This document shows positions 7,329-46,562 of a stretch of DNA of 64,000 bases, piece by piece. The notes under the pieces were generated by a model. The model was given only the letters and a program-made list of their open reading frames with translations. It made no database searches and had not been told where the DNA came from. The position numbers and the translations under genes were made by a program. The DNA is from Acidimicrobiia bacterium UBA4744 (lineage in GTDB: Bacteria; Actinomycetota; Acidimicrobiia; Spongiisociales; UBA4744), in assembly GCA_002403855.1 (NCBI GenBank), contig DHIO01000050.1, positions 16,598-80,597 of the forward strand. Direction: 5' to 3'. Within the stretch, counting starts at the first letter, position 1, and every line of letters begins with the position of its first letter.

Positions 7329-7330
7329 GC

Positions 7331-9196: not shown

Positions 9197-9205
9197 CGGG
9201 CCAGG

Positions 9206-9728: not shown

Positions 9729-9798
9729 CATCCCAACCTAGTCGACTGCCGTTCGACACGATCAGCCGATGACGAATACATGCACTAACGTCGTCGTC

Positions 9799-20959: not shown

Positions 20960-20961
20960 CC

Positions 20962-24409: not shown

Positions 24410-25374
24410 GCGAATCGGGGTGGGTGCTCCTGACGGCCGCACTGACAGCAATTGCAGCATCGGCAGCAGTCCACACGGTCGTGCGTCCCACAGTCCGGCT
24501 GAGCGGAAGGTTGCGCCCCTATTCGGCCGTCAGTCGCAGCATGTTGGGCAGCAGCACCCTACTCCTACGGTGGGAAACCAGCACAGGATTCGCAAAACGC
24601 ATGGGGCTCGGTCGGCTGCTGGGACCGCCGCTGACCGCCCTGGCCGGCCGGGTCGGGTCCTTCATCGAAGCAACCAGTGAGGAACGGCTGGTGATCAAGA
24701 TCCGGCAATCGGGTTTGTTCACCAACACGAATGGGGCGGCGCGGCTCCAGGAGTACCGCATACGCCAATTCACCACGGCAGTTGCCGGAGCCGCGGCAGC
24801 CTCGGCTTTGGGCCTGTTCCTCGCCCGACCGACACTGCTGGTCCTCATTCTGGCGGTGACCGGCTTCGTCGGTGGAGCGGCCTACTGGCGGAGCCGGATC
24901 GACCGAGCGATTGAGGCTCGCCGTACTCGAATGGAAATCGAGTTGTACACCGTCAACCAACAATTGGCCTTGCGGGTTCGGATCGGGGGTGGAGTGATCG
25001 CTGCAGTTCGGCAGTTGGTCGGCCGGAGTCGCGGAGCCGTGGTCGAGGAGCTTCGAGAAGCCATGCGACTGATCCAGGGGGGTATGCCTGCATCGAAGTC
25101 ATTTGACCGGCTGGCAGACCTGACCCCTGAACCGCAGGCCGCCAGGTTGTATCAGCTGCTCGCCACATCGGAAGAACGCGGATCCGACCTCGCAGAAGCT
25201 TTGCTCTCTATGAGTGAAGACATTCGTGAGGATCGCCGGGAGGCAATGCGGAGACTCGCCACGAAACGGAGAGCAGCCATGCTCATCCCGATCGTGGGGC
25301 TGATGGCTCCCATCATCATCCTTTTTGTCGGGGCGCCACTTCCCTGGATCGTGTTTGGGGGGTTGGGGAGTTGA
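24406..25374 (+). CDS. tadC: TadC-like type II secretion system F-family membrane protein
   Basis: Second GspF-like platform protein. GTGA overlap with tadB. Confidence 0.75.
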   Translation: MSESGWVLLTAALTAIAASAAVHTVVRPTVRLSGRLRPYSAVSRSMLGSSTLLLRWETSTGFAKRMGLGRLLGPPLTALAGRVGSFIEATSEERLVIKIRQSGLFTNTNGAARLQEYRIRQFTTAVAGAAAASALGLFLARPTLLVLILAVTGFVGGAAYWRSRIDRAIEARRTRMEIELYTVNQQLALRVRIGGGVIAAVRQLVGRSRGAVVEELREAMRLIQGGMPASKSFDRLADLTPEPQAARLYQLLATSEERGSDLAEALLSMSEDIREDRREAMRRLATKRRAAMLIPIVGLMAPIIILFVGAPLPWIVFGGLGS

Positions 25375-27553: not shown

Positions 27554-28768
27554 TCACGAATGTTCTACAAGAACAACTGCCGTTAACGAATCGACCAACC
27601 TCTTGCCAACTTCTCGTCTCAGACTGGGTGGTCGAGGTCGGTAAGGGCGGCCGTCTGGCCTGATGAAGATCAGGTCTCCGTTGGGGCTTCCTTCGATCTT
27701 CCATCCCGCTTCGTGGACGAGCCGGTGGTGGTAGCCGCAGAGGGTTACGAGATTGTCGAGGTCGGTGGGTCCTCCGTTCGACCAGTGGACAAGATGGTGG
27801 GCGTGGGCGAATCGTGTGCGTTCACAGCCCGGGAACCGGCAGCCCTGGTCGCGCCGGCGGATCTGGCGGTTCAGCCAGGCAGGGATGGTACGACTGGTGC
27901 GCCCGATACCGACCGGGAGGCCATTGGATCCTTCCAGCACGGCCTGCAGGCGGGCATCACAGCTCAACCGGCGTGCGGACTCGGCGGTGAGGGTGGAACC
28001 ACCTTCTATTCCTCCGGTCCCGCGACCGTTGGTGAGGGTTTCGACGTCAACGTGCACGACCACGTTGGCCCGGTCCGGGTCCGGGTCAGATGCCAGAGAA
28101 CCCGAGGCGATCTCTATCAAGGCGTCGGCGAGACGCACATCGGGATCCTCGTAGATCTGGCGATCGGCGTTTTGGGGGACCCGACGTTCGGCCCGTTCGA
28201 GTGCCTTCTCGACGACGGCGCCATCGGCGCCGGGAATCCGCCCGCGGAGGTGGAACCACTGACGGTCTCGATCCCACCACTTCGTCAAGGATCGTCGGCT
28301 GCGGGTCCTTTCGTCCTCCTCCGGAGCCCGATTGCGCCGGGCCAGGGTATGAACTTGGGAAGCCGAGAGGCCTTGAGCCTCTTCGGCGAGGATCTCCTCG
28401 GTGTCCGGGCCGGCGAACCGGGTCAACGAACGAACCTTGTCCCACGACAAACGCCCTTCGCCAAAGGCCTTCGCAATGGTGGGAAGCTCCTCGAGCCCCG
28501 CACCGACGGACACCAACTGGGAGGCGGTCCCGTACGCGACCCCCAGTTGGGCGACTAGCCAGGCGCTCATCGAGGTAGCTCCGTCTTCCTTCCAGGATTC
28601 GGTGCGGTCGTGCGCGGCGATCACCTCCACCAGCGTACGGCGAATGGCGCACTCGGCGGCGAACAACTGCGCGATGGCGTCCGACCGTTCGACGGCCGGT
28701 CTGCTCTCATACGGATTGCCATCCACGACTTCCCCTTCCATCGGGTGGGGAAGTGATGGTTCAACCAT
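27554..28768 (-). CDS. DUF222 + HNH endonuclease domain protein (13E12-repeat family-like)
   Basis: C-terminal HNH motif (DQGCRFPGCERTRFAHAHHLVHWSNGGPTDLDNLVTLCGYHH); N-terminal DUF222-like region. Start ATG 28768 (MVEPSL). Convergent with the last Tad gene across a 3-nt gap. Confidence 0.7.
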   Translation of the reverse strand: MVEPSLPHPMEGEVVDGNPYESRPAVERSDAIAQLFAAECAIRRTLVEVIAAHDRTESWKEDGATSMSAWLVAQLGVAYGTASQLVSVGAGLEELPTIAKAFGEGRLSWDKVRSLTRFAGPDTEEILAEEAQGLSASQVHTLARRNRAPEEDERTRSRRSLTKWWDRDRQWFHLRGRIPGADGAVVEKALERAERRVPQNADRQIYEDPDVRLADALIEIASGSLASDPDPDRANVVVHVDVETLTNGRGTGGIEGGSTLTAESARRLSCDARLQAVLEGSNGLPVGIGRTSRTIPAWLNRQIRRRDQGCRFPGCERTRFAHAHHLVHWSNGGPTDLDNLVTLCGYHHRLVHEAGWKIEGSPNGDLIFIRPDGRPYRPRPPSLRREVGKRLVDSLTAVVLVEHS

Positions 28769-28995
28769 ACGACCCGGGTGTGACAGAGAATGCCCTGCCT
28801 CATCGCTCGGACCCAACACGACCGGCGCGCAGGTTCGGACGCGGAGTTGATCCACCCCCAGGCGCCACCGGTCGAGAGCTCGCCGAGCGCATGGGAGTGG
28901 CTGCACGACGCACAGGCAGCGGTTCCACGAAAGACCTCCCACCCGGGGACCATTTGGGGATCTCTTCATCGAGACGCGCGATTGCGGCGGAGGCT

Positions 28996-31230
28996 CTACG
29001 CCGCCGAACGGTCCGGTATCGGTTTGAGCTCCTCCACCGCCAACTCGTCCGTTTCGCCTTCGATCTGGATCTTGGGCAACCAACCCAGCCAGCGGGGGAG
29101 GTACCAGTTGCGGTCACCCAGCAGAGCCATCGAAGCGGGCACCAGCACCGACCTCACGATGGTGGCATCCAGGATCACCGCGATACCCAATCCAAAGCCG
29201 AGCTGTTGGAACATGACCAAGTCGCCCGCGGCGAACCCACCGAAGACCGCCACCATGATGAGCGCGGCGCCGGTGATGATCGCCCCCGTCGAGCCCAAGC
29301 CGAACGCCACCGACTCCCGATTGTCGCCGGTGATGTCGTAGCGCTCCTTGATCCTGGTCAGCAGGAAGATGTGGTAGTCCATCGACAACCCAAACAAGAC
29401 TGCAAACAGGAACAGCGGCACCCAGGCCTCGATCATGTCTGAGGTTCTGAACCCAAGCAGGTCGGCCCCTACGCCCTCTTGGAATACCAAGACCAGCAGA
29501 CCGTAAGAAGCTCCGACGGAGAGGAGATTCAAGAGTATCGCCTTGAGCGGAACCACGATCGACCGGAAGACCACCATCAGCAGCAGAAAGCTGAGCCCGA
29601 GCACGAACGCAAAGATCACCGGCGTACGCTCGCTGAGGACATCGACGTAATCGCTGCCGGAGGCGGCGGCGCCGGTCACCAGGACGTCGGCCTCCACGCC
29701 CTCAAAGGCGGTCGGGATCACGGTTCCCCGCAGTTCCTCCAATTCCTTGCGGGCCGCATCTGAGGCCGGGTCGAGCTTGGTGACGGCTTCGATAACGGCC
29801 AGCCGCCCATCCTCACTCATGGTTACCTTGGTTTCTCCATAGGTTGGGCCGGCGGCCAGGTAGTCCACGACTTCGCCGATGCCTTGTTGAACCGGCCGGA
29901 CACCAACATCGATAGCCGACACGACGATCGGAGTGGTGATGGCGCCCGTATCGAACTCCTCGGTGAGCACCTCGAAAGCGTGTAAGGAATCACTCTCTTC
30001 AGGGAGTGATCCAACGAAGTTGCTGCCGGTGGAGATGTTCAGGTACGGGGCGGCCAGGGCCAGCAGCAATCCACCCGCTACGACGACGCTCAGTAAGGGT
30101 CGTGCGGTAACGACCCGGGTGACACCGTGCCAGAGCCGGCCGCCACCTTCCCGATAGTGGGACCCGGAGGTGAAGGGCACCCGCAGCCGGTTGACCCGAT
30201 CACCCAGCAGACCGAGAATGGCCGGGAGCAGGGTCACCGCTGCCAGCAGGGCGACGAGGACCGCCAGAATGGCTCCCACTCCCATGCTGCGCATCACGGT
30301 CTCGGGCATGTACAGCAAGCCGGTGAGTGCGATCACCACCGTCAAACCGGAAAAGAAGACCGCCCGCGTGGCTGAGTCGCCGGCCCGGGCGACGGCTTCA
30401 CCGACGGGATGGCCCTTGGCGCGCTCTTCACGGAATCGCTGAACGACAAACAACGTGTAGTCGATTCCGACCGCTAGACCGATCATCGTGATCATGTTGA
30501 GGACGAAGAAGGAAAGGTCGAACGCTTCGCCGATGAGAGCGGTTACCCCCGCAGCGACGACGATGGACACGATGGCCAACAACAGGGGTATTCCCGCCGC
30601 CACCAGGGCACCGAACACGAGAACCAGGATGACCAGGGCGATGGAGAGCCCATAGGTCTCGCCCTTGATGAGGGTTTCCTCGGAGATCGTCTCGAACTCG
30701 ACGTTGACGCTTCCCTCACCGAAGGTCGTCACCCGAAAGCCCTCGATGGCGTCGACTTCTTCGACGAGGGCGATGACGGGTTCCGACTCGACCATGGCGT
30801 CGAGTGGGTCACCGGCCAGGGCCACCGTGATCAGCGCGGTGTGGCCGTCTTGTGAAGTCATTCCGGGGATCCCATCCAGGTAGGACGCCACCGAACCGAC
30901 CGTCTCAGTAGCCCGGAGGTCGCCGACCAGGTCCTCGACGGCGGCGGCGAACACCGGATCATCGACGGTCAGCATGTCGGACTCGATCACGACGAATTCG
31001 CGGGCGGAAGCCGCGTCGAAATGAGCAGCGATGAGATCGTCGGCTTGGGACGACTCGGTGGCAACGGCGAGATCTCCTTGATCCGTGAGTACTGCACCGA
31101 TCCGGGCAGCGAAGAACCCTGCGACAACGACGATCAGCAACCACACGATGATGTACCGCCACGGGTGGGCCGCGGCCGACCCGGCCCACCGGCCGGTGAA
31201 ACTACGTCTGGTCGTGCTGGACATGTGCAT
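28996..31230 (-). CDS. MMPL family RND-type transporter
   Basis: Two 6-TM bundles with two large extracytoplasmic domains, MMPL-like motifs (GIDYTLFVVQRFREE, GLSMDYHIFLLTRIKE). Start ATG 31230 with GAGAAAGG RBS. Confidence 0.8.
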   Translation of the reverse strand: MHMSSTTRRSFTGRWAGSAAAHPWRYIIVWLLIVVVAGFFAARIGAVLTDQGDLAVATESSQADDLIAAHFDAASAREFVVIESDMLTVDDPVFAAAVEDLVGDLRATETVGSVASYLDGIPGMTSQDGHTALITVALAGDPLDAMVESEPVIALVEEVDAIEGFRVTTFGEGSVNVEFETISEETLIKGETYGLSIALVILVLVFGALVAAGIPLLLAIVSIVVAAGVTALIGEAFDLSFFVLNMITMIGLAVGIDYTLFVVQRFREERAKGHPVGEAVARAGDSATRAVFFSGLTVVIALTGLLYMPETVMRSMGVGAILAVLVALLAAVTLLPAILGLLGDRVNRLRVPFTSGSHYREGGGRLWHGVTRVVTARPLLSVVVAGGLLLALAAPYLNISTGSNFVGSLPEESDSLHAFEVLTEEFDTGAITTPIVVSAIDVGVRPVQQGIGEVVDYLAAGPTYGETKVTMSEDGRLAVIEAVTKLDPASDAARKELEELRGTVIPTAFEGVEADVLVTGAAASGSDYVDVLSERTPVIFAFVLGLSFLLLMVVFRSIVVPLKAILLNLLSVGASYGLLVLVFQEGVGADLLGFRTSDMIEAWVPLFLFAVLFGLSMDYHIFLLTRIKERYDITGDNRESVAFGLGSTGAIITGAALIMVAVFGGFAAGDLVMFQQLGFGLGIAVILDATIVRSVLVPASMALLGDRNWYLPRWLGWLPKIQIEGETDELAVEELKPIPDRSAA

Positions 31231-31245
31231 ACCTTTCTCGACAGT

Positions 31246-31343
31246 GCCCACAACGTACGGCCGGGGGAGGGCGGTAGACAGCCGGCCCGCCTCCCCCTCC
31301 TTGTTGTGGGCCACCGCAGGGCGAATTGGGGGGTTAACCCCCC
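31246..31343. repeat. structured intergenic element: ~66-nt imperfect hairpin (GCCCACAAC..GGGGGAGG / CCTCCCCC..GTTGTGGGC) followed by perfect palindrome GGGGGGTTAACCCCCC (31328-31343)
   Basis: Seen directly in the 223-nt divergent region between the MMPL and esterase genes. Confidence 0.6.
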
Positions 31344-31453
31344 GGGAACGGAGAGCTGGGGAACGGCTCAGTGAAAGGCGCCGTGCCGGGGTTTCCCGGA
31401 CCGGATCCGGTGGCCTCCCGGCCATTTGAGGGATCGACCTCCGTACGGCAAGA

Positions 31454-32497
31454 GTGTTCGCCGTCTCGCCTCGACCTCGATTCCCATCTACCGTGGAGGT
31501 CGTGGCAACAGTGATCTACCTGGGCAGCCTTCTGCTGGCGGTGCTGGGAGCGGTGGTGCGGCAGGTGTGGCACCGTCTGTTGAAAGGGCCCCTGGTCGCC
31601 TCCTGGGCTTGGTATGTCGAACTACGAATGGTGGCTCTGCGCGCCTTCATCGTGGCAACTTCCCGGGGCGGTGACCGGTCGCGCCGGCGCGCCCTCGAAG
31701 CCGACCTCGATCCGCCCCTGCCGAGGTCCCTTCGCCAGGTCATGAAGAAAGAGGCGGCAACAGTTGGGGGCATCCCGGGGGAGTGGGTCCGGCGCGGTCA
31801 TGCCCGGCAGGAAGACCCCACGATTCTCTACCTCCACGGTGGGGCCTACCTGGCCGGCAGCCCTGCCACCCACCGGAGGTTCATTTCCCGGCTCACCTGG
31901 ATCACGAGAGCCACCACATTCGCCCCCGACTACCGACTAGCGCCCGACCACCAGTTCCCGGCGGCGGTTGATGATGCCGAGGCCGCCTACGTGGGATTGC
32001 TCGAGATGGGTGTGGAACCGGGCCGGTTGGTCGTTGCCGGCGACTCGGCCGGAGGCGGACTCGCCTGTGCGTTGCTCCAGCGACTTCGCGACGACGGTCA
32101 TCCGCAGCCGGCCGGTGCTGTGCTCTTCTCTCCGTACACCGACCTCGAACACACTGCTCCGTCCATTCGGAAGAATGCCGCGACGGACTATCTGCCGGTC
32201 GGGCCAGTAACGGCCAACACGTTCTACCTGGGCGATGCCGACCCCAAGCACCCGGAAGCATCACCAATGTACGGCGACTACACCGACGTTGCCCCCATGT
32301 TGGTCTTTGCAGGGGGGAGAGAAATGATCCTCGACGATTCCGTGCGCCTCGTCGAGAAAGCATCTGCAGACGGCGCGGATGTCACGCTCCGTATCGAGGA
32401 CGACATGTTCCACGTCTGGCCGGCATTGCTGCCCAACCATGAAGCCACTCGCCGCACACTGACGGCGGTTGCCGATTTTGTCCGCACCAGGGTCTGA
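31454..32497 (+). CDS. alpha/beta hydrolase, HSL-type esterase/lipase
   Basis: HGGAY oxyanion motif, GDSAGG nucleophile elbow; N-terminal hydrophobic segment. Confidence 0.8.
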   Translation: MFAVSPRPRFPSTVEVVATVIYLGSLLLAVLGAVVRQVWHRLLKGPLVASWAWYVELRMVALRAFIVATSRGGDRSRRRALEADLDPPLPRSLRQVMKKEAATVGGIPGEWVRRGHARQEDPTILYLHGGAYLAGSPATHRRFISRLTWITRATTFAPDYRLAPDHQFPAAVDDAEAAYVGLLEMGVEPGRLVVAGDSAGGGLACALLQRLRDDGHPQPAGAVLFSPYTDLEHTAPSIRKNAATDYLPVGPVTANTFYLGDADPKHPEASPMYGDYTDVAPMLVFAGGREMILDDSVRLVEKASADGADVTLRIEDDMFHVWPALLPNHEATRRTLTAVADFVRTRV

Positions 32498-32599
32498 ACA
32501 AGGAGAACCGAATTCGGACTGGTGCCGTACTACAGCATGGGGATAGCAGCGAATCCCCCATAGGATTCTCTATTCGGTAACCGAGGACCACAGCGGGAG

Positions 32600-33397
32600 A
32601 TGACATTGAAAGACGCGAGACTGGGCGAGTGGGGCGCGATCAGCGGCCCGGTACTGATCGCGGCGGCTGTGGTGGTGTTGGCTGCCGGTGCCGGATTGTG
32701 GTTCTTCCTCTCCGGGGACGAACCCGAAGAGGTGAATCTGGAATCTGCTGCAGCAGTGGTTTCCACCACTACGACAGCCGCAACACCGTCCGAGGACCTG
32801 CCGCCGGCCTCGAGCGAAACGGAAGGGCCGCCACCAGACGCCGGGATCGATGGAACCTGGAAGGTCGACACGTCGATCGGTTCCTTCTCCTTCGAGGACG
32901 CTACGAGTTCATTCGCCGGGTTCCGGGTAGCCGAGGAACTCGCCTCGATCGGTGCCACCGAAGCTGTGGGCCGGACTCCGGTGGTCGGTGGAACAATAGA
33001 GATCGAAGGGACCACTCTGGTGAGTGCGTTCATCGAAGCGGACTTCACCGCTATCGTCAGCAACGACAGCCGCCGCGACAGTCGTATTCAGGCAGCGCTG
33101 GACACCGACGAGTTCCCGACGGCCACGTTCGCGCTCACCGAACCGGTGGACTTCGAGACGGTCCCCGCCTCGGGTGAATCGATCTCAGTCACCGCCTTCG
33201 GTGACCTGACCGTTCACGGTGTCACGAATCCAGTCGAAATGCCTCTCGAGGCTCAACTCGTCGACGATGTCATCGTGGTGGTAGGGAGCAGCGAGATCGT
33301 GTTCGCCGATTACGACGTCGAGCCCCCCTCGGCAGTGATCGTGCTGTCGGTCGAGGATCGCGGGCAAATCGAACTGCAGCTCTTCTTCACCCGCTGA
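32600..33397 (+). CDS. YceI family protein
   Basis: N-terminal TM, Thr-rich linker, then YceI-like domain (WKVDTSIGSFSFE...HGVTNPVEMPLEAQL). Confidence 0.75.
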   Translation: MTLKDARLGEWGAISGPVLIAAAVVVLAAGAGLWFFLSGDEPEEVNLESAAAVVSTTTTAATPSEDLPPASSETEGPPPDAGIDGTWKVDTSIGSFSFEDATSSFAGFRVAEELASIGATEAVGRTPVVGGTIEIEGTTLVSAFIEADFTAIVSNDSRRDSRIQAALDTDEFPTATFALTEPVDFETVPASGESISVTAFGDLTVHGVTNPVEMPLEAQLVDDVIVVVGSSEIVFADYDVEPPSAVIVLSVEDRGQIELQLFFTR

Positions 33398-33529
33398 CGA
33401 AAAGCCCCTGCAAGAGGAGGCCTTTTCGCTGGGTACTGAGGAGGGACACTCATGCCAACGCGCCGCCGACCTAGGCGCGTCCGCAATTGTCGGAAACCCG
33501 TCTGAGAAGCGCGCGCTACCGGCTCCTGG

Positions 33530-34543
33530 TTGAATGCTCCGATGCGCGATTGGTCGACGATGCCCAAAGTGGAGTTGCACGTGCATCTTGAGGGAGCCAT
33601 TCCGCTACCGACCCTGTGGGAGCTGATCGAACGACACGGCGGAGACGACACCATCAAAACGCCGGCCGAGCTGGTGGAGTGGTTCACCTACCGGGATTTC
33701 GCTCACTTCATGGAGACCTGGGTCTGGATGAATGGCTTTCTTCGCAGCTATGAGGACTTCACCTTTGCCGCCGAAGCCGTGGCCCGCCACCTTGCCGCCC
33801 AGAACATCGTCTACGCCGAACCGTTCTTCTCCCCGAGCGACTTCGGCCACCAAGGTCTGCATCCCCAGGAATTGGCCCTCGCCATCCGGGCCGGACTCGA
33901 TCGCGTTCCGGAGGTCGAAACCCCGTTGATCGTTGATCTGGTTCGCGATCGAGGACCCGACGGAACAGCCCGAACCCTGGCTGCCATCAGCGAAGTGGCG
34001 GCCGAGGCGCGGGTGATCGGCATCGGAATCGGCGGCTTCGAAGCAGAGAACCCGCCGGAACTCTTCACCGACGTCTACCGCACCGCCCGTGCTGGGGGCT
34101 TTCGACTGACGGCCCACGCCGGCGAAACCGCCGGTCCGGAGAGCGTCTGGGGGGCCATCAACGCTCTGGAGGTAGAGCGGATCGGCCACGGGGTCAGGGC
34201 GGCCGAGGATCCAGCTTTGATCGAGTATCTGGTCGAACACCGCGTACCGCTCGAGGTGTGTCCTACCTCCAACATCCGCACCGGCGTGGTCTCGGACTGG
34301 GAAGACCACCCGGCCCGCCGGTTGATCGAAGCCGGCGTCGCCGTCACCGTGAATACCGACGATCCGGCACTCTTCCATTGCTCCCTGGCCGGCGAGTACC
34401 AGGTGCTGGAGCGGCGATTCGGGTTGACGGAAGAGACGATCAAGAGGATCTCCTTGTCGGCCGTGCACGGGTGCTGGGCACCGGTCGCGACCAAGACAAC
34501 CCTGGAAGACCGCATCAACGCTTGGTGGGACGGGACGGGCTGA
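33530..34543 (+). CDS. adenosine deaminase family protein (second paralog)
   Basis: PKVELHVHLEGA, HAGETAG, TVNTDDP signatures of the ADA/AMP-deaminase fold. Confidence 0.8.
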   Translation: MNAPMRDWSTMPKVELHVHLEGAIPLPTLWELIERHGGDDTIKTPAELVEWFTYRDFAHFMETWVWMNGFLRSYEDFTFAAEAVARHLAAQNIVYAEPFFSPSDFGHQGLHPQELALAIRAGLDRVPEVETPLIVDLVRDRGPDGTARTLAAISEVAAEARVIGIGIGGFEAENPPELFTDVYRTARAGGFRLTAHAGETAGPESVWGAINALEVERIGHGVRAAEDPALIEYLVEHRVPLEVCPTSNIRTGVVSDWEDHPARRLIEAGVAVTVNTDDPALFHCSLAGEYQVLERRFGLTEETIKRISLSAVHGCWAPVATKTTLEDRINAWWDGTG

Positions 34544-34563
34544 CCAGGCGTACAATCGCGCCG

Positions 34564-35373
34564 ATGCCCTACATCACCCTCTCAACCGATTTCGGGACCC
34601 GGCAAGGGAGCCAAGCCGTTCTGCACGGGGTCATCTACCAGATCGCCCCGGAAGCCGTGATCACCGACCTCACCCATGAGATCGCCGCCCAGGACATCCG
34701 GGAGGCGAACTTCGTGGTAGACAGCAATGCCTTCTTCTTCCCGCCGGGGACGATACACGTGATCGTCGTAGACCCGGGCGTCGGGACCGACCGCAGAGCC
34801 ATTGCCGCCCGAATCGGGGAGCACTACTTCGTGGCGCCCGACAACGGAGTGCTCAGTGCCTGCTTGGCCCGGGCGGCCCGGGAAGGCTGGCCGACGGAAT
34901 TCGTCGATCTCGACAAGCCTCAATACTGGCTGCCCAACTTGACCAACACCTTCCACGGCCGCGATCTCTTTGCTCCGGTTGGTGCTCATCTGGCATCCGG
35001 AGTACCGCTCTCGGCGATGGGAACGCCCTGCGACGATCCGCTGACTATTCCCCTGTGGGGGGCAGTGCGGCGCGAGGACGGCCGTGTCGAAGGCGAAGTG
35101 ATCTATATCGACGACTTCGGCAACGCGATCTGCTCCATCCTTCCCGACGAGATAGCCCATCTTCCCCTCCCGGACGGGGTGGAGGTGGAGTTGTGCGGTG
35201 CGGCCATCGAAGGCATGGTGAAGACCTTCGGCGATTCCGAATACGGAACCGACACCCTCATCGCCCTCTGGGACTCGAGCGGCTACCTGCTGGTGTCGGA
35301 GAACAACGGCACCGGAGGGAAGGTGATCAAACCCCGGCCGGGCGATCCGGTCGTGGTGCGCCGATTGAATTAG
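34564..35373 (+). CDS. SAM hydroxide adenosyltransferase (DUF62; fluorinase/chlorinase-like SAM hydrolase)
   Basis: MPYITLSTDFGT... DUF62 N-terminal signature, VVDPGVGT, GNAICSI C-terminal beta-barrel motifs. 20 nt downstream of the ADA paralog. Confidence 0.75.
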   Translation: MPYITLSTDFGTRQGSQAVLHGVIYQIAPEAVITDLTHEIAAQDIREANFVVDSNAFFFPPGTIHVIVVDPGVGTDRRAIAARIGEHYFVAPDNGVLSACLARAAREGWPTEFVDLDKPQYWLPNLTNTFHGRDLFAPVGAHLASGVPLSAMGTPCDDPLTIPLWGAVRREDGRVEGEVIYIDDFGNAICSILPDEIAHLPLPDGVEVELCGAAIEGMVKTFGDSEYGTDTLIALWDSSGYLLVSENNGTGGKVIKPRPGDPVVVRRLN

Positions 35374-36119
35374 AGGCGCCCGGCTTCGATGATCCTTTGC
35401 AGGAACTGCTGGGTGCGGGCCTCTCCGGGGTTCCGGAAGATCTGATCGGGTGGGCCCTGTTCGAGAATCACGCCGTCATCGAGGAAGCAAACCCGGTCTG
35501 CTACGTCTCTGGCGAAGCCCATCTCGTGGGTAGCGATGACCATCGTCATGCCGACCTCCTTGAGATCGCGAATGACGTTGAGCACCTCGGCGATCAACTC
35601 GGGGTCCAGGGCTGAGGTCACCTCATCGAGGAGGACCAGCTCGGGATCGATAGCCAGCGAGCGGATGATTGCCACCCGCTGTTGCTGGCCACCCGACAAG
35701 CGGTCCGGGTATTCCGTCACCTTGTCGCCCAGGCCGAAACGGTCGAGCAACTCCCGGGCCCGATCCTCGGCGGCCGCCCGGTTGAGCCCGTGCACCTTGC
35801 GAGGACTCAGGGTGATGTTGTCCAGAACACTCATATGGGGGAACAGGTTGAATGCCTGGAACACGATCCCCATTCGTTGCCGGACCTCGTTGGGATTCAT
35901 CCCGGGAGCGGTGATGTCCTTGCCGTCGAGGAAGATCTGCCCGTCGTCGATCGGAAACAGCAGGTTGACGCATTTGAGCAGTGTTGATTTGCCGGATCCG
36001 GAAGCGCCGATCAGGCAGACCACATCATGGTGTCCGACCTTCAGATCGACGTCGTGGAGCACCACTTTGGCCTCAAAGGCCTTCTGCACATTGCGCAGTT
36101 CGAGTTTCGGAACGCTCAT
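35370..36119 (-). CDS. amino-acid ABC transporter ATP-binding protein (GlnQ-like)
   Basis: Walker A GASGSGKST, signature LSGGQQQR, Walker B LLLDE. ATGA overlap with the permease. Confidence 0.88.
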   Translation of the reverse strand: MSVPKLELRNVQKAFEAKVVLHDVDLKVGHHDVVCLIGASGSGKSTLLKCVNLLFPIDDGQIFLDGKDITAPGMNPNEVRQRMGIVFQAFNLFPHMSVLDNITLSPRKVHGLNRAAAEDRARELLDRFGLGDKVTEYPDRLSGGQQQRVAIIRSLAIDPELVLLDEVTSALDPELIAEVLNVIRDLKEVGMTMVIATHEMGFARDVADRVCFLDDGVILEQGPPDQIFRNPGEARTQQFLQRIIEAGRL

Positions 36120-36988
36120 CCGCCCACCGCCTGCTTGCGGCGGCGATCGCGATCCGTGTACCAATCGGTGAAGCGGGCCACCGGGACACTGACCAGTAGA
36201 AAGAGGATGGTGGCGACGATGTAGCCCGTGTAGTTGAACGTACGAGCGTTGTAGATCTGAGCTTCGCGCACTCCTTCCCTTACTCCCAGCACGAAGACCA
36301 GAGCCACGTCCTTCTGCAGGCTCACGAAGCCGTTGAGCAAGGCCGGAATGACATTGCGGATGGCTTGGGGGACGAGCACATATCGAAGGGTCTGGATCTG
36401 GGTCAAACCGAGCGATCGGGCCGACATACGCTGGCTTTCTCGGACCGACTCGATCCCGGCCCGGTACACCTCGGCGGTGTACGCGGAGTAGCTGATGATG
36501 AGAGCGGTGAGTCCCCAGAACAGCTCACTGTTGGGCACGCCGGGCAATTGCAGTGCCGGAACTCCGAACCCCAGGAGCAGAATGAGCAGGATGATCGGCA
36601 CGCCGCGAATCAGATCGATGTACGTGACCGCCAGCAACCGGAGTGGGAAAAACGCCGGACCGCGCAGTGCCCGGATCATGGCGACGATCAGGGCTATGAC
36701 GAGGATGAGGACCTCAGCCACCAGGAACATGCGGATGTCGAGCCAGAACCCCGACACCACCGCCGGCCACGCCGACTGGAAGTGGCCCCAGTTGAAGAAC
36801 TGTCTCTGAACGGCCGGCCACGCCTCCGAGGAGAGGACGAGCCAGAGGATGAATCCGATGAAGACGACCGTAGAGCCAAAGGCAATGAGAGCTCCGCGCG
36901 ACCCTTCCTCGCGGGCGACGGAACGGCGCCGGGGCCCGAACAGGCCCGGACCCCGGCCGAAATCCTCGATGGGTGACCGCTCCGTCAC
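36116..36988 (-). CDS. amino-acid ABC transporter permease
   Basis: EAA-loop region, polar amino-acid permease (HisM/GlnP) topology. Confidence 0.8.
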   Translation of the reverse strand: MTERSPIEDFGRGPGLFGPRRRSVAREEGSRGALIAFGSTVVFIGFILWLVLSSEAWPAVQRQFFNWGHFQSAWPAVVSGFWLDIRMFLVAEVLILVIALIVAMIRALRGPAFFPLRLLAVTYIDLIRGVPIILLILLLGFGVPALQLPGVPNSELFWGLTALIISYSAYTAEVYRAGIESVRESQRMSARSLGLTQIQTLRYVLVPQAIRNVIPALLNGFVSLQKDVALVFVLGVREGVREAQIYNARTFNYTGYIVATILFLLVSVPVARFTDWYTDRDRRRKQAVGG

Positions 36989-37009
36989 ATCGAAGCCCTA
37001 CCCGATCCT

Positions 37010-37978
37010 CTAACCACTGATGACGTTGAGTCCGCCTCCCAGCTCGAGCCAATCGGCGATCAGGCCGTCGATCGTTCCGTCGGCCCACAGCGAGTTGATG
37101 GCCTCGTTCACGCACTCGACGAGAGGGTTGCCTTCTGCAAACAACAGGCCGTATTCGTCGGGTTCCGCCGCGGCCGCCTCGAACTTCCCGGCGATCACGG
37201 AACCCTCTACCTGCGCTGCGGTTACGAAGTAGGCGGTGGGCAGATCGACCACCAGGCCCTCGATCTGACCGGCGTTCATTGCAGAAACGACGTCGAAGTT
37301 CTCGTCGTACACGTTCGGCGGAGTGTCGGGTTGAATCACCATCTCCACGAAGTCGACGCTGGTGGTGCCGATGGCTGCACCCAGTTTGGCCGCCTTGAGA
37401 TCCTCCACGGTGGAGGCCTCTGTGTACGGCGACCCCTCCAGCACGACGAGCGCCTGGGTGGTCACGTAGTACGGGACACTGAAGTCGACGACCTCGTCAC
37501 GGGTGGCCGTGATCGAGTACTGCTGCATATTGAAATCCCAGTCTTTGGGACCAGGGCCGATCGCCTCGTCGAACCCCGTGCGCGCCCACTCCACCTGGTC
37601 GTCGGAGAAGCCCAGATAGCGGGCGATCTCGTAGGCCAGGGCGCCTTCGAATCCGGTCTGGGACGTCGGGTCGTCGAAGAAATCCCCCTCGAGCGTCCCC
37701 ACCCACGGCGGGAAGGCCGTCTCGCCGGTGGCGATCGTGAGCGTTCCCGGGGTCACCAGGTTGAGGTTCTCGACGGTGCAAGCGGCAAGCTCGGTGGTCG
37801 ATGTGGCAGCTTCCGTGGTGGTCGTCGTCTCGGCTGCCGTCGTTGTGGTGGCTTCGGTAGTGGTTGTCTCGGCTGCCGTTGTTGTGGTTTCCGCGTCGTC
37901 GGCGCAGGCCGCGGCCAGCATCGCCAAGGCGGTCACGATCGCGAGCAGCTTGCCCAGTTGGCTCCGGCGTATGCTCAT
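37010..37978 (-). CDS. amino-acid ABC transporter substrate-binding lipoprotein
   Basis: Lipobox LAAAC, Thr-rich linker encoded by ~24-nt direct repeats, PBP type-3 fold. Confidence 0.8.
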   Translation of the reverse strand: MSIRRSQLGKLLAIVTALAMLAAACADDAETTTTAAETTTTEATTTTAAETTTTTEAATSTTELAACTVENLNLVTPGTLTIATGETAFPPWVGTLEGDFFDDPTSQTGFEGALAYEIARYLGFSDDQVEWARTGFDEAIGPGPKDWDFNMQQYSITATRDEVVDFSVPYYVTTQALVVLEGSPYTEASTVEDLKAAKLGAAIGTTSVDFVEMVIQPDTPPNVYDENFDVVSAMNAGQIEGLVVDLPTAYFVTAAQVEGSVIAGKFEAAAAEPDEYGLLFAEGNPLVECVNEAINSLWADGTIDGLIADWLELGGGLNVISG

Positions 37979-38185: not shown

Positions 38186-38971
38186 TCAGACCGGTGGGGA
38201 CGCGTCGGCCAGGACGACTTCACCGACATGCTCCTCGAGGACGGTCTGAGCCTCGTGCGGCAGCGCCGTATCCGTGATCACCGCATCGGCCTCTTCGAGG
38301 CGGGCAATGGAGCTGATTCCCACCATGCCCCACTTGGAGTGATCGGCGACCACCACCAGTTGGTTTCCGGCAGCAATCAGGGCCCGGTCGGTCTCGGCCT
38401 CCAGGAGATTGGGAGTGGTGAACCCGGACTTGGCATCCATGCCGTGCACGCCCATGAAGACCAAATCCAGATGGGTGGCCTGCAGGGCCGATACTGCGAA
38501 CGGACCCACCAGGGCATCGGACGGGGTGAGCATCCCCCCGGTGAGCACAACGGTACGGTTCCCGCCGGGCGCCCGGTGGAGGAGCTCGGCAACCCGAACC
38601 GAGTTGGTGACGACGGTAAGGCCGGGTACGTCAATGAGGTTGTGAGCGACGGCGAAGGTGGTCGTTCCTGCGCTCATGCCGATGGCGCTCCCCGGGCGTA
38701 CCATTGCCGCGGCAAGCGCCGCGATCGCTTCCTTCTCCGCCTGCAGCCGAGTCGACTTGTCGGCAAAGCTCGGCTCATGCGAGGTGCCGTTGCGAACGGC
38801 TGTGGCACCGCCGTGCACCCTCTCCAGCAGACCCCGTTCCTCCAGGACTTCGAGATCTCGCCGGATCGTCATGTCCGACACGTTGAGTTCACCCACGAGA
38901 TCTGACACTCGGACCCCGCCCGTACGACGAATCATCGACAGTATGTAGGCCTGGCGTTGCAACTGCAGCAC
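38186..38971 (-). CDS. DeoR/GlpR family transcriptional regulator
   Basis: N-terminal HTH (RQAYILSMIRRTGGVRVSDLVGELNVSDMTIRRDL) then DeoR sugar-phosphate-binding domain. GTG start at 38971; the track's upstream extension was rejected. Confidence 0.8.
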   Translation of the reverse strand: MLQLQRQAYILSMIRRTGGVRVSDLVGELNVSDMTIRRDLEVLEERGLLERVHGGATAVRNGTSHEPSFADKSTRLQAEKEAIAALAAAMVRPGSAIGMSAGTTTFAVAHNLIDVPGLTVVTNSVRVAELLHRAPGGNRTVVLTGGMLTPSDALVGPFAVSALQATHLDLVFMGVHGMDAKSGFTTPNLLEAETDRALIAAGNQLVVVADHSKWGMVGISSIARLEEADAVITDTALPHEAQTVLEEHVGEVVLADASPPV

Positions 38972-39295
38972 TTTGTCTGTCTCTCTCTGTCCGGCGACCC
39001 CGATGTGGTGGATGGTCCCATGCACCGGATGGCCCGCCGCTTGGTGCCTTTCGCCCCTAGTTTCGGGTACCGGCGCCTCGCACAATGTCTCAGATGAGTC
39101 CAGCCTGACCGTCTGCCGTGCAGAAGTCAACATTTCCCAACAGAGACGGCAGAAAGGAACATCGCCGACAATGCATATTCCGCCTGTTAGAAGGGAGGTT
39201 TTGATTTTGAGGCGGCATCCGGCTGGAATAGACTCGCCCCTGTTGGTTTGTGTTCGGAAAGTCCGACCGCCCCAGATCAAAGGAGGAAGGGACAC

Positions 39296-40648
39296 ATGAC
39301 TCCGGAGAAACCCAGATCCCCGCTACTCAAGGGACTTCCGCACGTCACCAGACGCCAGGTGTTGAAGGGAGCCGGCGCTGCGGCCGGTCTGGCGGCCTTC
39401 CCCACGCTGCTGGCTGCCTGCGGCGATGATGAAGGTGCGACCACTACCGCAGCTGGTGGTGGCGGCGCGCCGAGCGGCACCCTGACCATCGGCTCCAACG
39501 CGTCTGACGAGCTGACCAAGAATGCCTACGGCGAAGCCTTCACCAAGTTCTCCGAAAAGACCGGGGTTGAACTCGCCATCAACACCGTCGACCACAACAC
39601 GTTCCAGCAACAGATCAACACGTATCTGCAGGGCCAACCCGACGATGCCTTCACATGGTTCGCCGGGTTTCGGATGAGGTTTTTTGCCGAGAAGGGTTTG
39701 GCGACGCCGTTCTCCGACGTCTGGAACGACAGTCTGAACGCCAATTACTCGGAAGCCTTCAAGCTGGCCTCGACCGGAAACGACGGAGAGCAGTACTTCG
39801 TACCGTTCATCTTCTATCCGTGGGCGATCTTCTACCGCAAGAGCGTCTTCGCCGACAAGGGGTATAGCCCCCCCACGACGCTGGACGAGTTGAAGGAACT
39901 GGCCGCGGCGATGGAAGCCGACGGGATGGTTCCGTTCGCGTTCGGGAACGACGGCGGCTGGCCGGCCATGGGCACCTTCGACTACCTGAACCTGCGCACG
40001 AACGGTTACCAGTTCCATGTGGACCTGATGGCCGGGCTCAAGTCCTGGGAGAGCGATGAGGTCAAGCAGGTCTTCGCCACCTATGCCGAGTTGCTGCCTT
40101 ACCACCAACCCGGGGCACTGGGCCGGACCTGGCAGGACGCAACGATCAGTATGGCCAACGGTACCGCCGGCATGCACTTGCTGGGCATGTTCCTCGGCGA
40201 CGCTCTCATCGACCTTCCGGAGGAACGGGAAGACCTCGACTTCTTCGCCTTCCCGGAGATCAACCCGGATTACGGCCGGGAGTCGGTAGAAGCCCCGATC
40301 GACGGCTTCATGATCTCCAAGGAGCCCAAGAACATCGACGCCGCAAAGGCGCTGATGGCCTTCATGGGTACGGGTGAAGCTCAGGACTACTACACGGCCG
40401 TCAATCCGAACTGGCTGGCGACGGCCAACGACGCCACCACGTCCGGGTACACGCCGCTGCAGAACAAGGCGCTGGAGCTGATCGGCTCGGCCGCCAACAT
40501 CGCCCAATTCCTCGACCGCGACACCGACCCGGGGTTTGCGTCGGAGGTAGTGGGTGTGGCATTGACCGAGTTCATCAACGACCCGTCCAACGTCGATAGC
40601 ATCCTCGCTTCGGTCGAGGAGCAGAAGGCCGGGTACTTCGACGTCTAG
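39296..40648 (+). CDS. sugar ABC transporter substrate-binding lipoprotein (solute-binding family 1)
   Basis: RBS AAAGGAGGAAGG, Tat-like RRQVLKG, lipobox LLAAC, family-1 extracellular solute-binding protein. Confidence 0.85.
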   Translation: MTPEKPRSPLLKGLPHVTRRQVLKGAGAAAGLAAFPTLLAACGDDEGATTTAAGGGGAPSGTLTIGSNASDELTKNAYGEAFTKFSEKTGVELAINTVDHNTFQQQINTYLQGQPDDAFTWFAGFRMRFFAEKGLATPFSDVWNDSLNANYSEAFKLASTGNDGEQYFVPFIFYPWAIFYRKSVFADKGYSPPTTLDELKELAAAMEADGMVPFAFGNDGGWPAMGTFDYLNLRTNGYQFHVDLMAGLKSWESDEVKQVFATYAELLPYHQPGALGRTWQDATISMANGTAGMHLLGMFLGDALIDLPEEREDLDFFAFPEINPDYGRESVEAPIDGFMISKEPKNIDAAKALMAFMGTGEAQDYYTAVNPNWLATANDATTSGYTPLQNKALELIGSAANIAQFLDRDTDPGFASEVVGVALTEFINDPSNVDSILASVEEQKAGYFDV

Positions 40649-40660
40649 AGTTCGGGCAGC

Positions 40661-41617
40661 ATGAGCACAGAGGTTGAAATAGCCACAACGGAAGAGGTGA
40701 GGAGGCCGAAGGCGCGGAAGCGCTTCAGCCTCCTCACCCGCCGTGACGTGGGGATGCTGGTGCTGCTGCTCGGCCTGCCGGCGTTCATTCACATTGTCTT
40801 TGTGTGGGTCCCGGCGATCCTCTCGGTGATTCTGTCGTTTGCCAGATGGGACGGAATCGGAGGGATCGAGACGATCAACTGGATCGGCACTCAGAATTAC
40901 GTAGATATCGCCACCATCTACCCGCCGTTCTGGCCGGCCGTCACGCACAACCTGATCTGGCTCGGCGTCTTCATCTTGATCGCCACCCCGTTCGGGATGT
41001 TCCTCGCCGTGCAACTCGATAAGGAACTGAAGGGCTCACGGTTCTACCAGAACGCCCTCTACGTGCCGGTGGTGCTGTCGCTGGCGCTGGTCGGGTTCAT
41101 CTGGCAGCTGATCTACGCCCCCGAGCAGGGTCTGATCAACAACATTCTGGGACGAACCGATCCCGACAATCTGATCGATTGGTTGGGCAATCCGAGCATC
41201 AACCTGTGGATGGTGCTCATCGCCGCCAGCTGGCGGCACGTCGGCTACATCATGATCCTCTACCTGGCCGGTTTGAAGAGCGTCGACCCGGCCCTCAAGG
41301 AGGCCGCGGCGATAGACGGGGCAACCAGCCGCCAGACCTTCTTCCACGTAGTGTTTCCGGTGTTGAAGCCCATCAACATCGTGATCCTGGTGATCACCAT
41401 CATCGAATCGTTGCGGGCCTTCGACATCGTCTACGTGATCAACAAAGGGCGCAATGGTCTGGAACTGCTGTCGGTGGCGGTCACCAACAACATCATCGGT
41501 GAGGCCAGCCGCATCGGATTCGGCTCGGCGCTGGCCGTGGTGCTACTGGTGATCTCTCTCGGAGTGATCATTCCGTATCTGTACCGGACCTTCCGAGCCG
41601 AGGAGAAACCCGCATGA
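40661..41617 (+). CDS. sugar ABC transporter permease (MalF/UgpA-like)
   Basis: 6 TM, EAA motif region (LKEAAAIDGATSRQTFFHVVFP). Confidence 0.85.
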   Translation: MSTEVEIATTEEVRRPKARKRFSLLTRRDVGMLVLLLGLPAFIHIVFVWVPAILSVILSFARWDGIGGIETINWIGTQNYVDIATIYPPFWPAVTHNLIWLGVFILIATPFGMFLAVQLDKELKGSRFYQNALYVPVVLSLALVGFIWQLIYAPEQGLINNILGRTDPDNLIDWLGNPSINLWMVLIAASWRHVGYIMILYLAGLKSVDPALKEAAAIDGATSRQTFFHVVFPVLKPINIVILVITIIESLRAFDIVYVINKGRNGLELLSVAVTNNIIGEASRIGFGSALAVVLLVISLGVIIPYLYRTFRAEEKPA

Positions 41618-42528
41618 CGGCGGTCGGCGAGACCCGCGACGTGGCTGCCAACAAGGCAGGCACCGGACAAGTCCGGTCCAAGTGGCGAACCCGTGGGTTG
41701 CAGCTGTTTCTGCTGGTGACGGCCCTGGTGTGGCTCACGCCTCTGATCTGGGCCTTCTACACGTCGTTGCGTCCGTATGCTTCAACGGCCGTTGAGGGAT
41801 ACGTCTCCATCGGCGGCGAGTACAACTTCGACAACTACCTCAGCGCCTGGGAAGACGGCGAGATGTGGAAGTTCTTCGTCAACACGCTGATCATCACGGT
41901 GCCGGCGGTGATCCTGACGTTGTGGCTGGCCTCGATGGCCGCCTTCGCCCTGTCCCGGTTCAGCTTCCGCTTCAACCTGATTCTGCTGATGCTGTTCACC
42001 GCCGGCAACCTGCTGCCCCAGCAGGTCATCATCACGCCGCTCTACCGGATGTTTCTGTCGATTCCGCTACCGGACTGGCTGGCCGGCAGCGGAGTCATGT
42101 TCGACAGCGCCTTCGGGATCGTCACCATTCACGTGGCTTTCCAGATGGGATTCTGCACGTTCGTCCTCAGCAACTACATGAAGGCGCTTCCACCCGACCT
42201 CAACGAGGCCGCCTTCGTGGACGGCGCCTCGGTCTGGCGCCAGTACTGGTCGGTGATTCTTCCACTGTCTCGACCCCCTCTGGCGGCGCTGGCCACGCTG
42301 CAGTTCACCTGGATCTACAACGACTTCTTCTGGGCGCTGGTGCTGATGACCACGGGAGCCAAACGCCCGATCACTTCAGCCCTGCAGAACCTCAGCGGGA
42401 CGTTCTTCACCGACAACAACCTGATCGCGGCCGGATCACTGCTGGCGGCCGTCCCCACGCTCATCGTGTTCATCATCCTCCAGCGGCAATTCGTTGCCGG
42501 ATTGACCCTGGGGTCGACGAAGGGGTAA
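41614..42528 (+). CDS. sugar ABC transporter permease (MalG/UgpE-like)
   Basis: 6 TM, EAA motif (LNEAAFVDGASVWRQYWSVILP). ATGA overlap with the upstream permease. Confidence 0.85.
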   Translation: MTAVGETRDVAANKAGTGQVRSKWRTRGLQLFLLVTALVWLTPLIWAFYTSLRPYASTAVEGYVSIGGEYNFDNYLSAWEDGEMWKFFVNTLIITVPAVILTLWLASMAAFALSRFSFRFNLILLMLFTAGNLLPQQVIITPLYRMFLSIPLPDWLAGSGVMFDSAFGIVTIHVAFQMGFCTFVLSNYMKALPPDLNEAAFVDGASVWRQYWSVILPLSRPPLAALATLQFTWIYNDFFWALVLMTTGAKRPITSALQNLSGTFFTDNNLIAAGSLLAAVPTLIVFIILQRQFVAGLTLGSTKG

Positions 42529-42531
42529 GAG

Positions 42532-42596
42532 GGTTTCAGGTTTCAGGTTTCAGGTTTCAGGTCTCAGGTTCGGGTTTCAGGTTCCGGGTTCCAGGC
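42532..42596. repeat. degenerate heptanucleotide tandem repeat (GGTTTCA)x~9
   Basis: ggtttca ggtttca ggtttca ggtttca ggtctca ggttcg- gtttcag gttccgg gttccag. Fills the 49-nt gap between the convergent permease and GH97 genes and overlaps the last 4 codons of GH97. Confidence 0.85.
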
Positions 42597-46497: not shown

Positions 46498-46562
46498 CCA
46501 CAACTCAAGATTCCTCCAGAGGATCGCGCCCACAAAGGCGCCGGTCTGCAACCACCCGGGGC

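Follow-up and report, generated by a model that had tools for sequence, protein, structure and literature searches.

The locus described here lies in a 64,000-nt stretch of DNA from Acidimicrobiia bacterium UBA4744 (assembly GCA_002403855.1, contig DHIO01000050.1, positions 16,598 to 80,597), referred to below as the window and numbered from its first nucleotide. The G+C content of the window is 60-65%, and its proteins find their matches in Acidimicrobiia assembled from metagenomes. On the plus strand, at 33542..34543, it carries gene A, predicted to encode a 333-aa zinc-dependent 6-aminopurine deaminase of the adenosine/AMP deaminase family cog1816, followed at 34564..35373 by gene B, whose domains and catalytic triad point to a 269-aa DUF62 S-adenosyl-L-methionine (SAM) hydrolase of the hydroxide adenosyltransferase type. 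Convergent with this pair, on the minus strand, are the genes of an ATP-binding cassette (ABC) importer of the PAAT family. We propose, with a probability of roughly one in three (0.35), that gene A, gene B and the importer form a lineage-specific module for SAM-type adenosyl compounds in a clade of uncultured Acidimicrobiia. A first-pass annotation, made from the DNA letters alone, had read the pair as an adenosine-deaminase paralogue and a DUF62 enzyme in an apparent operon that would degrade SAM to inosine in two steps. Its account of the genes and their arrangement stands, whereas its view of substrate and transcription had to be modified and the importer, which it had listed as a neighbour, moved to the centre.

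The open reading frame (ORF) of gene A extends over 33530-34543 (+) and matches the A_deaminase profile PF00962 from end to end (profile positions 1-330 of 330; E 8e-78; 262 bits with a cut-off of 27). It passes the broad model TIGR01430 (271 bits, cut-off 216.55) and stays below the cut-off of every specific NF0068xx Add equivalog (e.g. 256 versus 426). The start is almost certainly the ATG at 33542 and not the TTG at 33530, because this ATG is kept in nearly all related loci and most database homologues are 333 aa long; the TTG was rejected because it makes up the first three letters of a hexamer conserved upstream, within the element TGGTTGAAT. The subfamily is marked by the motifs HxHxE, GG and RIGHG, and residues H13, H15, E17, G164, G165, H192, E195, H216, D273 and D274 are invariant in 38 homologues. 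Loss of the catalytic His, Asp or Glu residues had been named beforehand as grounds for abandoning the two-step route; the zinc ligands (HxH, the third His and the Asp) and the equivalents of Glu217, His238 and Asp296 are all present and align with structures of both adenosine deaminases (ADA) and adenine deaminases (ADE), and gene A would accordingly appear from its residues to encode a catalytically intact 6-aminopurine deaminase. Its AlphaFold2 model has a pLDDT of 95.6 and in Foldseek reaches template modelling (TM) scores of 0.87-0.91 to ADE and ADA structures alike; fold comparison was dropped as a means of telling adenine from adenosine specificity, the ADE and Add structures being tied.

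As an adenosine-deaminase paralogue, gene A therefore holds up as a full-length PF00962 member, but not as a plain ADA. In its GIGGFE motif, the second Gly aligns with the Gly184-equivalent Gly of the ADA 'AGDE' motif, which we take to contact purine N3. Its HxHxE motif reads HVHLEG, with Glu17 where mammalian ADA has Asp19, presumably a contact of the ribose 5'-hydroxyl, and this Glu is invariant in the clade. Asp19 of mammalian ADA is among the residues critical for ligand binding (PMC6239307). The best PDB sequence matches of gene A are the adenine deaminases 3ou8 (Pa0148) and 3rys (AAur1117). Its identity is 34% to Pa0148 and 30-34% across the solved ADEs, and 31% both to Add and to the add encoded in the window; among cog1816 proteins, Patl2390, Sav2595, Acel0264 and CadD were left out of these comparisons. 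Pa0148 reportedly deaminates adenine, to go by the title of the paper on it as cited elsewhere, and adenine deaminases of the Pa0148/AAur1117 type are said not to accept adenosine; cog1816 is also said to include actinobacterial aminodeoxyfutalosine deaminases. The 3rys structure was deposited as 'adenine deaminase (AAur1117)', and several specificities, including those of Add and cytokinin deaminase, are found within cog1816 (PMC13296781). In a neighbour-joining tree, gene A falls into a clade of its own with homologues from Chloroflexota and Acidobacteriota, grouping neither with Add nor with the ADEs.

This clade is populous. A search of 1.84 billion cluster representatives (50% clusters) returned 1192 matches to gene A at E values up to 1e-30, the best 150 of which all outscore Pa0148 against gene A (187-359 versus 171 bits). 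Among the 121 full-length sequences of those 150, the Asp19 position is occupied by Glu in 103 and by Asp in none, the Gly-Gly motif is kept in 119 and RIGHG in 112, and the residue that follows Gly-Gly differs widely among the representatives of the subfamily. Judged by sequence, gene A is a member of a large cog1816 subfamily in which we identified no assayed member. To call it an 'adenosine' deaminase is an assumption, because it has Glu for Asp19, its best-scoring solved relatives are adenine deaminases and it belongs to a separate subfamily. The neighbourhoods of distant homologues contained no purine or menaquinone (mqn) genes; what was found there were genes for an acyl-CoA synthetase, a helicase, a permease, a racemase and an enolase-family protein. 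In three Dehalococcoidia loci (L024-L026, around 6700-7900), an enolase-superfamily (MR/MLE) gene directly precedes an A-like gene with the motif 'GGSE', and neither a transporter nor a DUF62 gene adjoins it. A role in defence was also considered and rejected, as PADLOC gave only a domain-level match of gene A to CARF_ADA and nothing for gene B.

The window holds a second deaminase gene at 8129-9196 (-), which the first-pass annotation had rightly set apart from gene A as the housekeeping add: it carries HEHLDG, its best PDB matches are Vibrio and Salmonella Add, and its neighbours are glycine-cleavage and GNAT genes. Two features of this gene were noted in passing. It reads 'STDNRLM' where other members have 'NTDDP', the Asp296 equivalent being Asn, and the hexamer TAGCCT, placed at -12 relative to the ATG, suggests a leaderless transcript.

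Gene B matches SAM_HAT_N (174 bits, E 1.6e-51) and SAM_HAT_C (46 bits, E 7.7e-12), both above cut-offs, which confirms the DUF62 gene at 34564-35373. Hydroxide adenosyltransferases share a conserved D68-R75-H127 triad (PH0463 numbering), whereas halide is coordinated by T80/S158 in the fluorinase (FDAS) and by Y70/G131 in SalL (PMC4859513). Residues D70, R77 and H131 of gene B fall on D68, R75 and H127 of PH0463 in the alignment, and the comparison of hydroxide with halide enzymes that had been suggested for this gene comes out in favour of the hydrolase triad and not of halide-pocket residues. The segments P92-D93-N94-G95 (PDNG) and D183/F185/G186/N187 (IDDFGN) are invariant relative to PH0463 and 2zbu. 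Over the active-site segment, DPGVG..R and TFHGRD are common to gene B and all solved hydrolases, including MJ1651, deposited as '(R)-S-adenosyl-L-methionine hydrolase', and halogenase structures score far lower there. Gene B reaches 57.8 against the fluorinase equivalog TIGR04507, whose cut-off is 400; it also stays below the NCBIfam equivalogs for (R)-SAM hydrolases, which are narrow, lineage-specific models (NF058624, 153 of 350; NF053629, 134 of 470). Those DUF62 hydrolases that have been assayed turn over the inactive (R,S) epimer of SAM. By analogy, this epimer is likely to be the substrate of gene B as well, which would make it a repair or salvage enzyme and not one of SAM degradation.

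The two genes lie as first described, on the same strand and 20 nt apart, between the gene A stop codon (TGA, 34541-34543) and the gene B ATG at 34564. A genome scan with exact 8-residue peptides of gene A yielded 45 loci; an exact-sequence look-up of the gene A protein in a contig collection gave no record. In all 25 that belong to Acidimicrobiia/Actinomycetota, which are close relatives only, a gene B orthologue (76-86% identical) follows directly downstream of gene A (67-82%) on the same strand. Among the 20 loci of other phyla (A 32-55% identical), none has a DUF62 gene within 8 kb, and 80 diverse metagenome DUF62 loci (34-54% identical, 503 kb in total) contained no ADA-family gene. Co-occurrence of the pair, proposed earlier as a check, is thus complete among the related genomes and absent from the distant loci of either family: the pairing is real but lineage-specific, confined to one subclade. 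Within it, the junction measures 18-20 nt in seven loci including the window, 9-10 nt in 11 and 59 nt in one, and is an ATGA overlap in six; the genes upstream (an esterase and YceI) are retained only in the closest loci, and the pair stays together. In one locus (L023:8001-8973), gene A is frameshifted, with query residues 1-196 and 180-324 in different frames, and gene B is intact; this split gene is either a pseudogene or an assembly error.

A scan of 32400-36400 for sigma-70 consensus promoters and terminators found no promoter match and no terminator between A and B. Motifs of the actinobacterial -10 style emerged only from the comparison of 26 loci. Upstream of gene A, an extended -10-like element, TGGTTGAAT (33527..33535, +), ends 6 nt before the ATG and is a putative promoter; TG[GT]TTGAAT occurs at this position in 25 of the 26 loci despite differing upstream genes. 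Upstream of gene B, the -10-like hexamer TACAAT (34551..34556, +) lies 7 nt before the ATG as a candidate internal promoter, and TANNNT is found at -12/-13 from the gene B ATG in 26/26 loci, across four junction types and even out of frame inside gene A, against a background of 0.0017 per position; six of the 1545 ATGs in the window have TANNNT at that spacing. Gene B has no Shine-Dalgarno sequence. In M. tuberculosis, 73% of primary transcription start sites have a TANNNT centred 7-12 bp upstream, TGN makes the -10 element an extended one, and leaderless mRNAs occur commonly (PMC3898074). Because the spacing of the -10-like elements matches this rule (PMC3898074), both mRNAs look leaderless, and gene B may have an internal promoter of its own besides read-through from gene A. 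Comparing the junction at 34541-34563 across L001-L039, we noted that in one group the gene A stop is the TAG of a conserved TAGCAT hexamer; in another, TAGCAT is out of frame and gene A runs four codons further to the ATGA overlap, so that the hexamer is kept and the frame changed.

Same strand, junctions between -4 and +59 nt, lack of a terminator and kept adjacency are all found for this pair, and the overlapping junctions in six genomes argue for coupled expression. The apparent operon of the first-pass annotation is upheld to that extent, but obligate co-transcription is not, given the -10-like element of gene B; we consider co-transcription likely but not exclusive. Searches with Rfam detected no element in the whole window at gathering scores and none in 33300-33650 at E values up to 1.

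Immediately downstream on the opposite strand, as had been noticed before, an amino-acid-type importer occupies 35370-37978. Its ATPase gene (35370..36119, -; PAAT family) has GlnQ, EhuA and TcyN as the nearest NCBIfam models, all below cut-off; the permease gene (36116..36988, -) matches BPD_transp_1, with a 3-TM (transmembrane) HEQRo-type profile; and the substrate-binding lipoprotein gene (37010..37978, -; SBP_bac_3) shows a GGAGG before the ATG at 37978 and an LAAC lipobox. The stop codons of the ATPase gene and of the convergent gene B overlap by 4 nt, and the ATPase ATG at 36119 overlaps the permease stop codon. For the binding protein, PDB matches are remote only (GlnPQ SBD, AncQR; E 1e-18 to 1e-21), and of the residues typical of amino-acid binders it retains Thr and Arg in the S/T-I-T-x-x-R motif as well as the Asp further on, positions at which we take the carboxylate and ammonium groups on the alpha carbon of an amino acid to be held.

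This importer adjoins the A-B pair in 22 of the 25 loci, and A-B stands without it in L021 and L022. It also accompanies each gene alone. Four DUF62 orthologues without gene A (62-71% identity, L128-L131) adjoin an SBP_bac_3/BPD_transp_1 (/ABC_tran) importer, co-directional in L128 and convergent in L129-L131; this importer is orthologous to that of the window in L128 and L129 and a paralogue in L130 and L131 (binding protein 24% identical). Conversely, five gene A homologues without gene B (62-64% identity, L132-L136), found through the protein database only, all have the orthologous importer beside them (identity to the window's: 71-84% for the ATPase, 74-86% for the permease and 55-66% for the binding protein), convergently in L132, co-directionally in L133, L134 and probably L135, and divergently in L136; where co-directional, the order is gene A, binding protein, permease and ATPase, as far as the contig reaches. 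The importer is therefore the most persistent partner of both A and B, and the unit consists of three parts and is not a two-gene SAM-degradation operon. Directly after the Gly-Gly motif, all 25 B-linked gene A proteins have Phe, Tyr or His, and all five B-less ones have Ser. In L136, the importer is 84-86% identical to that of the window and gene A only 63%, which argues that gene A diverged in step with whether gene B is present. In L130 (6001-10376), two DUF62 paralogues (63% and 47% identical to gene B) flank the PAAT importer; the first has IDEFGS in place of IDxxFGN, and the second heads the transporter operon.

Links with transporters were also seen outside this clade. In nine Acidobacteriota loci (L029, L030, L033, L035-L038, L043 and L044; around 6300-9900 in most), an A-subfamily gene with the motif 'GIGGDE' directly follows an APC amino-acid permease gene (AA_permease_2), and in six of these nine a gene of the Asp/Glu/hydantoin racemase family comes after the deaminase on the same strand. 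An energy-coupling factor (ECF) importer follows DUF62 in about 6-7 of 43 other loci, and this DUF62-ECF arrangement is a second kind of DUF62-importer linkage. In seven loci of other phyla (L052, L053, L055, L059, L060, L067, L086), an ABC ATPase gene lies directly after DUF62 on the same strand; in four of them (L052, L055, L059 and L067), cluster representatives served to identify an ECF module with a double ABC ATPase, CbiQ/EcfT and, except in L059, a PF07155 S-component.

Based on the observed gene identities, active-site residues, promoter-like motifs and conservation and rearrangement of the three parts, we propose the following hypothetical sequence of steps, in each of which the substrate is inferred: (i) water activated by gene B would attack C5' of SAM, yielding adenosine and L-methionine, probably with a preference for the inactive (R,S) sulfonium epimer, by analogy with the assayed DUF62 hydrolases; (ii) gene A would remove the 6-amino group of the released adenosine or adenosyl compound, thereby taking away a tight-binding product and passing the purine to inosine and hypoxanthine salvage; and (iii), the least certain step, the importer would bring in an adenine-bearing amino acid (SAM, possibly S-adenosylhomocysteine, SAH), making the whole an uptake-and-salvage system for methionine and purine. 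The importer may carry such a compound because its binding protein keeps the amino-acid-holding residues and the importer is the most persistent neighbour of both enzymes.

Several observations weigh against this module. Gene A has Glu at the ligand-critical Asp19 position, its best-scoring solved relatives are adenine deaminases, and the genome already has a canonical add. In B-less loci, gene A alone could not split SAM. No curated transporter model reaches its cut-off for the importer, and we know of no ABC-type SAM importer. The pairing is not a general rule for either family, because it is absent from the 80 DUF62 loci and the 20 distant gene A loci; gene B has a -10-like element of its own and no Shine-Dalgarno sequence, so that it may be expressed independently; and neither a SAM riboswitch nor any other Rfam element was found in the window.

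A possible, if somewhat doubtful, alternative is the purely intracellular two-step route, in which gene B hydrolyses SAM, repairing the (R,S) epimer, gene A is an ordinary ADA, and the importer is a mere neighbour, linked at most via methionine or amino-acid economy. This is close to the SAM-adenosine-inosine pathway first suggested for the locus, which survives as the core of the account we favour but ignores the importer and is over-specific about gene A. The conserved A-B pair with its overlaps and the hydrolase triad of gene B agree with it, as do the Gly184-equivalent Gly and RIGHG that gene A shares with ADA, its passing of TIGR01430, and the two loci with A-B and no importer. It does not, however, explain why gene A alone (5/5) and gene B alone (4/4) stay beside a PAAT importer through inversions and rearrangements, nor the change from Asp19 to Glu, nor the coexisting canonical add.

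It is unlikely, on present evidence, that gene A acts upstream of or in parallel to gene B on a 5'-substituted adenosine such as SAM, SAH, methylthioadenosine, 5'-deoxyadenosine or aminodeoxyfutalosine, Glu17 then reflecting altered 5' recognition. The predominance of Glu at the Asp19 position (103/121, never Asp), the variable residue after Gly-Gly that switches with gene B presence, and the importer partnership of B-less gene A would all fit, as would the aminodeoxyfutalosine deaminases said to occur in cog1816; yet no mqn or methionine-salvage genes occur near gene A in any locus. Similarly unlikely is the idea that gene A is an adenine deaminase like Pa0148/AAur1117, connected with gene B only indirectly, via a nucleosidase or phosphorylase or via spontaneous SAM breakdown, which yields adenine and S-ribosylmethionine and would supply its substrate. 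The best PDB sequence and fold matches (3ou8, 3rys), the common HxHxE and an alignment free of gaps over residues 31-110, where ADA sequences need indels, point in this direction. Against it are an identity of only 30-34%, the separate clade, the lack of GLDS(S/A)E, RIDHG and NSDDPAYFGGY in gene A, which has Gly at both positions as in ADA, and the lack of a nucleosidase or phosphorylase in the module.

Less probable still is the absence of any functional link, the arrangement then being synteny inherited in a shallow clade with a promoter for each gene. The pairing in one clade only (A 67-82% identity) and the -10-like element at each gene are what this explanation would lead one to expect; but the neighbouring genes on either side were exchanged with A-B left in place, the spacing at the junction shifted between +59 and -4 nt and never parted the two genes, the three-way association recurs in different orientations, and the gene A sequence tracks the presence of gene B. 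Finally, a halogenase role for gene B, producing a 5'-halo-5'-deoxyadenosine for deamination by gene A, is effectively excluded: the fold family is in common and NCBI names some gene B orthologues 'SAM-dependent chlorinase/fluorinase', but D70-R77-H131 is the hydrolase triad (FDAS and SalL being compared by published positions and not column by column), and both the TIGR04507 score and the weak match of halogenase structures over the active-site segment speak against it.

Other parts of the window appear in passing. A DUF222 and HNH endonuclease gene (27554-29083, -) lies just beyond an MMPL transporter gene (28996-31425), and L001, L046 and L047 also have a homologue close to the module; the DUF222 and HNH family is often associated with mobile DNA in actinobacteria. 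A Tad/Flp pilus-like set at 20195-25374 (+) comprises RcpC/CpaB, a ParA-like ATPase, a T2SSE ATPase and two T2SSF genes. The region at 38186-47504 is devoted to carbohydrate use and unrelated to the module, with a DeoR/GlpR regulator, an SBP_bac_1 sugar ABC importer with two permeases and a GH97 glycosidase, together with a ROK-family gene and an ABC-2 exporter pair; some of this region turns up again downstream in L004 and L046.

Both enzyme families and the chemistry proposed for gene B are already known. The literature searched, which did not cover Kornfuehrer 2020 (a possible neighbourhood analysis), contained nothing that connects DUF62 with either an ABC importer or an adenosine deaminase. 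What DUF62 SAM hydrolases do in the cell is still under study, clearance of the inactive (R,S)-SAM epimer being the current idea, and a module of DUF62, purine deaminase and amino-acid-type importer provides a concrete, testable context for it, bearing on the coupling of adenosine removal to SAM hydrolysis and on the question of whether SAM-like compounds are taken up by some bacteria as a source of methionine and purine. Moreover, the large cog1816 subfamily is annotated 'adenosine deaminase' everywhere, probably a systematic mis-annotation, and the residue that switches with the DUF62 partner offers a handle for specificity studies. As a tentative and rather doubtful extension, the importer would be the first of the binding-protein-dependent ABC type to carry SAM-type adenosyl amino acids, with a DUF62 hydrolase and a cog1816 deaminase as dedicated processing enzymes: DUF62 would split imported, largely epimerised SAM into methionine and adenosine, and the deaminase would act on adenine-bearing amino acids or their products. 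If that were true, the PAAT ABC link in Acidimicrobiia and the APC link in Acidobacteriota would mark a widespread environmental trait of SAM/SAH scavenging. Interest in the locus would rise if the importer carries SAM or the deaminase subfamily has a new specificity.

Comparison with characterised systems places each part of the proposed module. Gene A resembles the adenine deaminases Pa0148 and AAur1117 in being the best sequence and fold match, in HxHxE, in all zinc and catalytic residues, and in ADE-like loop lengths, with no gap over residues 31-110, a region we take to be the active-site lid. It differs from them in having GIGGFE, RIGHG and NTDDPALFHCS where the ADEs have GLDS(S/A)E, RIDHG and NSDDPAYFGGY, the ADE motifs being defined from two solved sequences only. 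With canonical ADA (Salmonella and Vibrio Add, mammalian ADA and the window's add) it shares the fold (TM-score 0.89-0.90), the catalytic His/Glu/Asp set, the Gly184-equivalent Gly and RIGHG; in contrast, it has Glu for Asp19, needs 3-16 gaps over residues 31-110 and is only about 31% identical. The closest known counterparts of gene B are the DUF62 hydrolases PH0463, TTHA0338 (2cw5), MJ1651 (22uy), 2zbu (Thermotoga), StDUF62 (Salinispora) and SaciSAMH (Sulfolobus). In common with them it has the two-domain SAM_HAT architecture, the Asp-Arg-His triad and the PxNGL and IDxxFGN motifs, and by analogy it would be expected to convert SAM and water to adenosine and methionine; its identity to solved members is only 34-36%. 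The surroundings differ as well: in Sulfolobus, DUF62 is found with a triphosphate tunnel metalloenzyme and an NMN adenylyltransferase, here with a deaminase and a PAAT importer.

The fluorinase and chlorinase systems (FlA, SalL) are likewise built around a DUF62-fold enzyme that yields 5'-substituted or plain adenosine, and there the product goes to a neighbouring purine-nucleoside phosphorylase (FlB, SalT). At the locus described here, the nucleophile would be water and not halide, the partner is a deaminase and not a phosphorylase, and no natural-product genes were found near A and B. Among SAM importers, yeast Sam3 belongs to the APC family and those of Rickettsia and Chlamydia are DMT-type carriers. 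Should the importer reading be right, the module would share with them the uptake of SAM as a nutrient, and the likeness extends to the Acidobacteriota, in which an APC permease precedes the same deaminase subfamily; unlike any of these carriers, the transporter of the window is a binding-protein-dependent ABC system of the PAAT family.

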